This document shows positions 2,703 to 3,719 of a stretch of DNA of 4,825 nucleotides, piece after piece. The position numbers were made by a program, and so were the translations under genes. Source of the DNA: a virus (Duplodnaviria; Heunggongvirae; Uroviricota; Caudoviricetes); IMG/VR virus record IMGVR_UViG_3300001149_000089, one strand, 5' to 3'. The notes under the pieces were generated by a model, which saw only the letters and a list, made by a program, of their open reading frames with translations, was not told the DNA's origin and did not search any database. How positions within the stretch are numbered: position 1 is the stretch's first letter; each line of letters begins with the position of its first letter.

Positions 2703-3011
2703 CTACGATAACCGCGCATTCAACATGGCTACCTGTTCGTCGTTCATGTCATCAATCCACATACCGTAAATTTCATACACCATCTGCGCAGTTTCATGCC
2801 CCATCTGGCTGGCTATAAATGCCGGGTTCGCTCCTGCCGTCAACAGCCAGCAGGCAAAAGTATGTCGCGTATGGTACGGATTACGGCGGCGAATACCAGC
2901 ACGTTTTACTGCTGCATTCCATCTCGCTCCCAAATAGTCGTAGTGAAATCTGATGGGAAAGCCTTGCTTAGCATGCTGGTGTTGCGCTACCCGTACAGGA
3001 TGCGGTAACAC
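2703..3011 (-). pseudogene. Tyrosine recombinase (phage-type integrase) C-terminal fragment; 5' part of gene absent
   Basis: Translation ...RRNPYHTRHTFACWLLTAGANPAFIASQMGHETAQMVYEIYGMW... carries the box II catalytic pattern H-x-x-R-H-T-F-A ... G-H ... Y. Only about 100 codons are present; an in-frame stop lies at 3021-3023 immediately upstream, and no integrase-like reading frame continues into 3012-3200 in any frame. The track's start at 3011 is a GTG. Confidence 0.75.
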
Positions 3012-3719
3012 AGGAAGAAATTAGAACAGAAACTGTGGCGGACATTGTGCATTCGTTGCCAGGCGGAGAAATAGAACGCTACAACAGGTGCAGAATATAA
3101 TTTTTCGCGAGTGCCAGAATAGCGATATTATGCAGTGTTTTTTAGTTTTCTATCAGGGGATATTTTGTGAAACTTTTCGGTGAATAAAATAATTCTCTGT
3201 AATAAATGATGAGTATGGTTGGTGGTTATATTTGCGCATGGAAATATTACATTAGACATGAATGTGTTTCAAATGAAAGAGCCATGACACCCGAATGGAG
3301 TTAGGGATTCATTACGTATCTAATCTAAAGAATAAGAAAAATACTTAATTCATTGTGGGTGGTGATGATATCTTGATATGTGAAAATGGTTCTCTTAATA
3401 AGATGTAACTAGCTTATTACTTATCCATAGCACAAGAAATGGTCCTGTATCTGCGTTGCCATGAAATAAGATAGGCCTAAATGTAATAAAGAGTTGCATG
3501 ACAAAATTACTAAAGTTCACAATAAAAAAGAATTAAGTTTTTTGTTCAGGTATTTTTTTAGTGTATTGTTTTGAAATGTTCTACGCTGCTCTAACCTTCA
3601 GTCTGAAGAGGGCTTGAATCGTGATGTCAGTTCGATTGACATAATGTTATTAATAATGTTTACGTTTGAATGTGAAATATGCTTAACTATGCCTTGATTG
3701 TTAATCACAGGGACTGACT

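Follow-up and report, generated by a model that had tools for sequence, protein, structure and literature searches.

Why does the 3' end of a tyrosine integrase gene lie close to an omptin-family protease gene in this DNA, and does the one tell how the other arrived? The locus in question is a 4,825-nucleotide (nt) stretch from an IMG/VR virus record (IMGVR_UViG_3300001149_000089), referred to here at its full length as the window, which matches positions 1516696-1521520 of the Escherichia coli APEC O1 chromosome (NC_008563.1) at 100%. The first-pass annotation, made from the sequence alone, had placed ompT beside the scar of a mobile element. A mobile-element scar is indeed present, but it is that of an older phage and not of the omptin carrier, which has its own integrase gene intR, is separated from the scar by an attachment (att) site, attR, and is found without it elsewhere, as the scar is found without the carrier. 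The integrase fragment, here called int', is a real but ordinary and already annotated pseudogene of an older, almost fully eroded Rac-type prophage at ttcA. In all probability it is the dead integrase remnant of a lambdoid prophage of this type that once occupied the 5' end of ttcA; the complete prophage with the omptin gene came later. The omptin gene is cargo of this resident Rac-type prophage, lies outside the eroded block (the fossil) and is not a chromosomal gene beside a scar.

The integrase fragment and the DNA in which its homology ends comprise the following features.

2703..2933, minus strand: int' pseudogene, the last 76 codons and the stop of a Rac-type tyrosine integrase, IntR residues 336-411 (tblastn, blastn, Pfam, RefSeq).
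2934..3023, minus strand: non-integrase 5' extension of the open frame, with GTG at 3011 and an in-frame stop at 3021-3023 (list of open reading frames, translation, tblastn).
2935..2946, no strand: 12-nt filler TAGTCGTAGTGA (approximate), homologous to neither partner (blastn end-points; identical in strains CFT073 and KE48).
2947..3061, plus strand: DUF1627' fragment, internal, about residues 153-191 of a 253-residue prophage protein (84.5% DNA identity to the resident gene; tblastn E 4e-10; Pfam PF07789, E 5.4e-11; RefSeq pseudogene).

The stop codon of int' occupies 2703-2705 on the minus strand, and the enclosing open frame covers 2703..3011, or 102 codons from a GTG start. About 100 codons of a tyrosine recombinase had been claimed to remain; the C-terminal fragment is real, well past anything that chance would produce, but only 76 codons of it are integrase, both tblastn and blastn ending at 2934. 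These are identical to IntR residues 336-411 of APEC O1 at 76 of 76 positions and to those of K-12 at 75 of 76 (tblastn E 2e-48); at the DNA level, 229/231 nt agree with the resident intR 3' end, with both differences synonymous, and the whole of 2602-2934 is 96.7-97.6% identical to the intR 3' end with its att region. The fragment matches PHROG 216 integrase (E 1e-22) and Pfam PF00589 (E 1.7e-9; 38.2 bits for a gathering score of 27.1) over profile positions 112-165 of 172; by this match it is a tyrosine recombinase fragment, and by its close identity to Rac IntR a Rac-type one. It keeps the Arg of box II, the conserved His and, close to the C-terminus, the nucleophile Tyr. The G-H...Y motif reported before is present as MGHETAQMVYEIYG, identical to full-length IntR, but the H-x-x-R-H motif was misread: box II is N-P-Y-H-T-R-H-T-F, literally H-x-R-H, and has the same sequence in the full-length IntR of K-12 and APEC O1.

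What is left is neither a complete PF00589 catalytic domain, the first ~110 profile positions being absent, nor a 411-residue IntR, with only 76 homologous codons. A tblastn search with full-length IntR (E<=10) found no counterpart of residues 1-335 in any frame of the window, only noise elsewhere; homology begins at IntR residue 336, and the arm-type and core-type DNA-binding domains are missing. The N-terminal part of the tyrosine recombinase catalytic domain holds the first catalytic Arg and Lys. Because this part and both DNA-binding domains are missing, int' is judged inactive and should be unable to recombine DNA. RefSeq/PGAP labels 2703-2933 as 'tyrosine-type recombinase/integrase, incomplete, missing N-terminus'.

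The frame does stop at 3021-3023, as reported (TTA on the plus strand). Its 26 N-terminal codons, from 2934-3011 (MLPHPVRVAQHQHAKQGFPIRFHYDY), are not integrase and run antisense to the DUF1627 fragment, and the open frame at 2934-3023 reads as a chance frame opposite DUF1627'. The intR DNA homology ends at 2934 and the internal DUF1627 piece begins at 2947 (blastn end-points); in the resident Rac-type prophage the DUF1627 gene lies ~10 kb from intR. Since the intR homology stops, filler follows and a gene normally ~10 kb away comes next, the truncation of int' is a deletion junction, and the deletion or recombination junction proposed earlier is supported and can now be placed at 2934, followed by the 12-nt filler and the DUF1627 piece. 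A longer integrase frame could not be recovered by correcting a single error (tblastn), and CFT073 and KE48 have the same breakpoints to the base. The DNA to the right, described before as an AT-rich block poor in open frames, has 30-39% G+C and no integrase-like frame, but contains eroded prophage gene fragments.

The other side of int' faces an attachment site. Rac-type phages integrate in the 5' end of ttcA and replace it, and on excision TtcA takes on a different N-terminus (Liu et al. 2015, PMC4632033). In the replacement that they bring, the int 3' end comes 51 nt after the new ttcA 5' end. Three features of the window belong to this site.

2423..2600, no strand: right-hand att arm of the resident prophage, with three GGGGCAAA repeats (2459, 2478, 2489; Rac right-end homology).
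2601..2651, minus strand: orphan ttcA 5' end, 17 codons MQENQQITKKEQYNLNK and then a stop, counterpart of K-12 'ttcC'; attR of the resident prophage (translation, five-way att alignment).
2652..2702, no strand: 51-nt spacer from the int' stop to the ttcA start codon, the int-proximal att arm of the old prophage, with GGGGCATA and GGGCAAA motifs (att alignment, motif statistics).

When attL and attR of APEC O1 (the latter from the window), the prophage-free KE48 site, and attL and attR of K-12 were aligned, all five were found to have in common a 15-nt crossover core, TTGTTCAGGTTGTAT, at 2602-2616. Left of the core the window follows the phage arm, and right of it the prophage-free KE48 site. 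The right flank of attR is thus that of an empty site, and therefore int' and everything else right of 2602-2616 predated the integration of the resident phage. Several observations identify 2423-2651 as attR, namely the core in common with attL, the arm from the Rac right end (at 89.7% identity, 2423-2644 matches the right end of K-12 Rac together with ttcC) and the empty sites in KE48 and CFT073, in which the body of ttcA replaces the resident phage arm left of 2602. A ttcA-type ATG stands at 2649-2651, and the 51 nt between it and int' equal the ttcA-intR spacing in K-12 Rac and in APEC O1 attL. Three versions of the TtcA N-terminus can be told apart at this site. That from the resident phage, MQENQKNTKKEIYNLNK, agrees at every position with the attP region annotated in phage Rac-SA53; that from the fossil, MQENQQITKKEQYNLNK, is identical to the functional ttcA 5' end of CFT073; and the K-12 ttcC version, MSQNQEISKKEQYNLNK, is unlike the orphan 5' end in the window.

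The fossil as a whole measures ~2.3 kb and has the order int', DUF1627', DUF977', hok', sitD' between ttcA and uspF. A megablast survey of 5426 complete E. coli genomes, with 2652-4290 as the query and matches counted at a coverage of at least 80%, found it in 1044 of them at 98-100% identity, among them ATCC 11775, Nissle 1917 and F11; in another ~1875 matching genomes the match was restricted to the 283 nt common with full-length intR. CFT073 and KE48 are free of the prophage, have the arrangement ttcA-51 nt-int'-DUF1627'-...-sitD'-uspF, and from 2602 on agree base for base with APEC O1 across both junctions. The integrase, DUF1627 and permease pseudogenes are annotated by RefSeq in APEC O1, CFT073 and many other genomes. 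A Rac-type phage arm is joined to the fossil in only 30 genomes, and the whole window occurs in 13. Conversely, in APEC O78:H4 E14033 the same hydrolase-omptin prophage end runs directly into uspF, and no fossil is found there. The strains recognisable among those with the fossil (CFT073, Nissle 1917, ATCC 11775, F11 and APEC O1) belong to phylogroup B2.

The APEC O1 locus is the Rac locus of K-12 (ttcA-intR ... Rac ... ttcC-uspF-ompN). In RefSeq, its left part comprises dbpA, ttcA, a full-length intR (411 residues), xisR, ralR, recT, recE, kilR, sieB and repressor-region genes; the middle DUF1627, DUF977, queH, hok, lysis genes and trkG, and then terminase, head and tail genes; and the right part cdtABC of type IV (cdt-IV), an alpha/beta hydrolase gene, the omptin gene, the integrase pseudogene, the DUF1627 pseudogene and, further on, the metal ABC permease pseudogene, uspF, ompN and nifJ. 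The occupant is a complete ~52 kb Rac-type prophage with cdt-IV, hydrolase and omptin as right-end cargo, and its intact intR, together with xisR and ttcA, sits at the end opposite omptin, on the attL side. The gene called ompT in the first-pass annotation is the following.

863..1825, minus strand: omptin-family protease gene (Pfam Omptin, E 1.6e-128; 91% identical to K-12 OmpT).

Could int' nevertheless be the scar of the element that brought ompT, its own integrase cut down beside the gene? The two lie only ~0.9 kb apart, both are phage-derived, and the coding part of int' is 99% identical to the resident intR 3' end. The omptin prophage, however, has an intact intR at its opposite end, as expected of a lambdoid prophage, in which int lies at the end opposite the tail and cargo genes; the attR core and the orphan ttcA 5' end (2601-2651) stand between the omptin gene and int'; and each of the two neighbours is found without the other, the fossil in ~1000 genomes, CFT073 among them, and the omptin prophage end in APEC E14033. 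With the intact intR at attL, the att alignment and these separate occurrences, a scar of the omptin-carrying element was ruled out as a candidate, and we consider this origin highly improbable. The proximity is explained instead by the later prophage having entered the same core, which shifted the fossil to its attR side; the two are neighbours because both phages used one attachment site in ttcA. A decayed second copy from a tandem double lysogen of the present cdt/omptin prophage would account for the collinear gene order, but DUF1627' and hok' share only 84% and 82% identity with their resident counterparts, several positions set the ttcA 5' ends apart, sitD is not among the annotated genes of the resident prophage, and the fossil is widespread where no such prophage exists. 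This explanation is even harder to accept, and the divergence of DUF1627' and hok' indicates that the fossil came from a different phage. As to an intact integrase whose truncation is a sequencing or assembly artefact, the assembly of APEC O1 is old (2006-era), yet nothing else was found in favour of this idea; full-length IntR finds no upstream frame by tblastn, the DNA beyond 2934 is homologous to other genes, DUF1627 and DUF977, and the junctions are identical in independent assemblies. An intact gene hidden by a sequencing error was rejected accordingly, tblastn finding nothing more and the junctions recurring in other genomes, and of all the alternatives this one deserves the least credence.

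The rival that comes closest accepts the same origin and holds that the int' 3' end and the spacer have been kept by selection, as a ttcA promoter or 5' untranslated region, for integration and excision of Rac-type phages, or as a RecA repeat. In its favour, ~1000 genomes have only the 51-nt spacer and int' upstream of the ttcA start codon; the TtcA N-terminus of fossil strains is a phage-supplied variant, and functional differences among such variants have been reported (Liu et al. 2015, PMC4632033); motifs that are candidate arm sites are over-represented near the core; and int' is a near-perfect repeat (229/231) of the resident intR 3' end in direct orientation. Against it, a simple scan for sigma-70 promoters gave no candidate on the minus strand of 2652-3100, and the conservation of 98-100% does not exceed that of the other parts of the fossil, unassigned DNA included, a pattern that neutral drift in a young lineage would give. 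Selection of this kind is therefore doubtful, if far less so than the explanations above. The fuller proposal, in which a fifth of sequenced E. coli would have domesticated the int-proximal arm, the spacer and the ttcA 5' end of phage origin, to provide the TtcA promoter and N-terminus, an attL-like attB and a RecA route, seems to us somewhat more doubtful still. If it were true, the core with one phage arm would make the bacterial att site attL-like, so that Rac-type integration and excision could change, while lysogens of the APEC O1 type would get an attP-like arm-core-arm arrangement; and the ~333-bp direct repeat with the resident attL/intR could allow an integrase-independent, RecA-mediated loss of the cdt prophage.

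An older Rac-type prophage, eroded in place and later joined by a complete one, thus remains the best explanation, and its history probably ran as follows. An older Rac-type phage would have integrated in the ttcA 5' end, bringing a replacement 5' end with the int 3' end 51 nt on. Serial deletions would then have erased nearly the whole prophage: one spanning int codon 335 into the DUF1627 gene, further ones taking the entire late region, and the last running from the sitD start through the old attR. The ~2.3 kb AT-rich fossil that was left would have gone to fixation in a large lineage of E. coli. Later a second Rac-type prophage, this one complete and with cdtABC-IV, the alpha/beta hydrolase and omptin on board, would have entered the same 15-nt core in APEC O1 and a few related strains, supplying a third ttcA 5' end and displacing the fossil, with the previous 5' end, to its attR side. 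The ttcA-proximal end of the old prophage could not be deleted because it carried the ttcA start codon and presumably expression signals, and we infer that int' was retained through its position beside this start, the deletion end-point having fallen by chance 231 nt into int.

Several points weigh against this history. The identity of the breakpoints at base level was checked in three genomes, and for the others it is taken from megablast matches that run full length in a single piece. For ~1 kb of the fossil (3172-3953 and 4024-4290), Pfam, PHROGs, Rfam and blastn gave no recognisable origin. On the uspF side no second att core, the old attR, was found that would show the fossil to have been a bounded prophage. 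The order of events, finally, follows by parsimony from presence and absence patterns and not from a dated phylogeny.

The rest of the fossil, to the right of DUF1627', consists of the following pieces.

3053..3171, plus strand: DUF977'/Ren-like C-terminal fragment, about residues 105-137 of 140 (tblastn E 1e-6; PHROG 142 Ren-like, E 2.4e-7).
3172..3953, no strand: AT-rich DNA (30-35% G+C) without assigned origin (composition).
3720-3899, plus strand: 59-codon hydrophobic open reading frame (MRKILMYLCISIWIVISCVPIILTSEYL...) with AGGGA upstream, not annotated in RefSeq.
3954..4023, plus strand: hok/gef-family toxin gene fragment, about residues 18-46 (82% DNA identity to the resident hok region; tblastn E 2-4e-6 to Hok and HokD).
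4291..4825, minus strand, and on to ~4900 (~75 nt past the window): sitD' pseudogene of a metal ABC-3 permease, with frameshifts and an internal deletion (tblastn; Pfam ABC-3, E 2.6e-7; RefSeq frameshifted pseudogene).

DUF977' is 75-80% identical by blastn to the DUF977 genes of many E. coli prophages (78% to L006), and in live Rac-type prophages DUF977 comes after DUF1627, as it does here. The matches of the hok' fragment in other genomes are annotated as hokD or Hok-Gef. By tblastn, sitD' corresponds to residues 9-273 of phage 4A7 SitD over three frames, with 104-151 missing, and its DNA is 68% identical to sitD of lambda-like phages; sitD is prophage cargo, and in such phages, 4A7 among them, sitABCD has the tail genes on one side and int on the other and is read from the strand of int, a position at the attR-side end of the prophage map. 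The order and orientation of the fragments agree with the resident prophage (intR ... DUF1627, DUF977, queH, hok) and with lambda-like phages, and the block is accordingly collinear with a prophage of Rac or lambdoid type from which at least four deletions have taken >95% of the DNA. K-12 homology restarts directly after sitD', at window-equivalent 4898, 73 nt past the window. Searches with Pfam, PHROG, blastn and tblastn detected no structural, lysis or replication genes in the fossil, and in the survey genomes and in 50,697 phage records no less eroded intermediates were found, a sensitive search with the interior included; the 2.3 kb block is a fossil and not a prophage. In the unassigned AT-rich DNA, no open reading frame with 30 codons or more, the 3720-3899 frame included, has a match in Pfam or PHROGs. 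Rfam (E<=1) returned a sub-threshold match to the Salmonella small RNA STnc420 at 3517-3567 on the minus strand (21.9 bits for a gathering score of 70; E 0.79), which is most likely due to chance.

The att region has further features of its own. The motif GGGGCAWA occurs four times in the window where 0.29 copies are expected, and none of 200 shuffles reached four; all copies are on the plus strand, to either side of the att core, with three in the arm of the resident phage and one in the fossil spacer (2459-2496 and 2676-2694). GGGCAAA is also found at 2688, with a minus-strand copy beside the core at 2597. These motifs are candidate arm-type binding sites of IntR and XisR. Between ttcC and uspF of K-12, on the minus strand (L002, ~26060-26186), a peptide KCADIFPSNPYHTRHSFLYQISYAG is encoded that is identical to IntR 345-369 at 13 of 25 positions (BLASTP E 1e-5; blastn 76% over 51 nt); Pfam gave no match for this 'NPYHTRHSF' peptide, which is known from pairwise BLASTP only. 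It is possibly a second, older integrase relic next to uspF. Just past the right end of the window (L001 24898-24933), APEC O1 retains only the '...KCADIFPSN' half of the relic, because the right-hand deletion of the fossil ends within it. The relic suggests that even the 'ancient' K-12 ttcA 5' end may have been supplied by a phage.

On the other side of attR, the hydrolase-omptin module (window 1-1889) recurs at 98-99% identity on many plasmids of E. coli, with homology ending ~64 nt upstream of the omptin start, and most of the plasmids that match the window are typed as conjugative. The two genes are thus a cargo that moves between Rac-type prophages and plasmids. In PLSDB, 'plasmid unnamed1' NZ_CP141085.1 (385 kb; L003) contains the core chromosomal genes smrA, zntB, dbpA, ttcA, uspF, ompN and nifJ, and NZ_CP141089.1 is a 'plasmid' of 4.9 Mb; both are probably pieces of chromosome mislabelled as plasmids. 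With such records likely chromosomal, the plasmid matches to the right half of the window are no evidence of its mobility. In the AT-rich spacer between omptin and attR, at 2144-2176, a perfect 12-bp G+C-rich inverted repeat (GTGAGTCTGGCG, a 9-nt loop, CGCCAGACTCAC), read directly from the sequence, is followed on the minus strand by CCCCCTTTTCACC; it might be a terminator that insulates the omptin gene. The resident cdt-IV prophage has an internal stop in the terminase small-subunit gene and a tail-fibre gene split into two partial pseudogenes (L004 27012-28106; L001 12840-15215), and may be defective despite its complete look.

The main value of this work lies in a correction: the omptin gene is prophage cargo, and the integrase remnant next to it comes from a different and much older phage. 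The remnant was already known as a feature from its RefSeq annotation, and remnants at reused attachment sites are commonplace. The locus records the serial reuse of one attachment site, with three TtcA N-termini and a possible older relic near uspF; that each incoming phage displaces the previous ttcA 5' end will not surprise specialists in phage or E. coli genomics. It is implied that ttcA has a phage-derived 5' end and upstream region in ~19% of the complete genomes of E. coli. The same circumstance bears on CFT073, which was noted as an exception, having a Rac-type TtcA N-terminus yet no Rac at ttcA (Liu et al. 2015, PMC4632033). The exception is explained by the functional ttcA of lysogen-free fossil strains using the 5' end of the fossil. 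This explanation and the layered history are minor additions, which we did not find stated in the literature searched.

Among known systems, the closest is the intR-ttcA/ttcC arrangement of K-12 Rac (PMC4632033), which has the same site within the first ~50 nt of ttcA, the same 51-nt spacer, 97.6% identity over the 3' 333 nt and an orphan ttcA 5' end at attR. It differs from the window in that K-12 intR is full length (411 residues) and Rac is still excisable, whereas the window keeps codons 336-411 only; and, unlike K-12 ttcC (MSQNQEIS...), the orphan ttcA 5' end of the window is itself phage-supplied (MQENQQIT...). The cdt-IV region described by Toth et al. (2009, Infect Immun 77:492) was given a lambdoid framing, with a putative protease (rorf1) and an OmpT-like protease (rorf2) downstream; these correspond to window 1-678 and 863-1825, and the description, as quoted in PMC4606577, ends at the OmpT-like gene. 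Escherichia phage Rac-SA53 (KU052037.1) and the resident cdt-IV prophage of APEC O1 have the same integrase family and attP/core as the fossil but, unlike the fossil, which has lost >95% of its genes, they are complete genomes of ~52 kb in which intR is intact. The fossil itself is present in CFT073 as pseudogene C_RS26835 with its neighbours C_RS29200 and C_RS30860, with base-identical sequence and breakpoints and the same RefSeq pseudogenes, and equivalent loci are found in Nissle 1917, ATCC 11775 and F11. In APEC O1 a 52 kb prophage stands between the fossil and functional ttcA, whereas in CFT073 the two adjoin directly.

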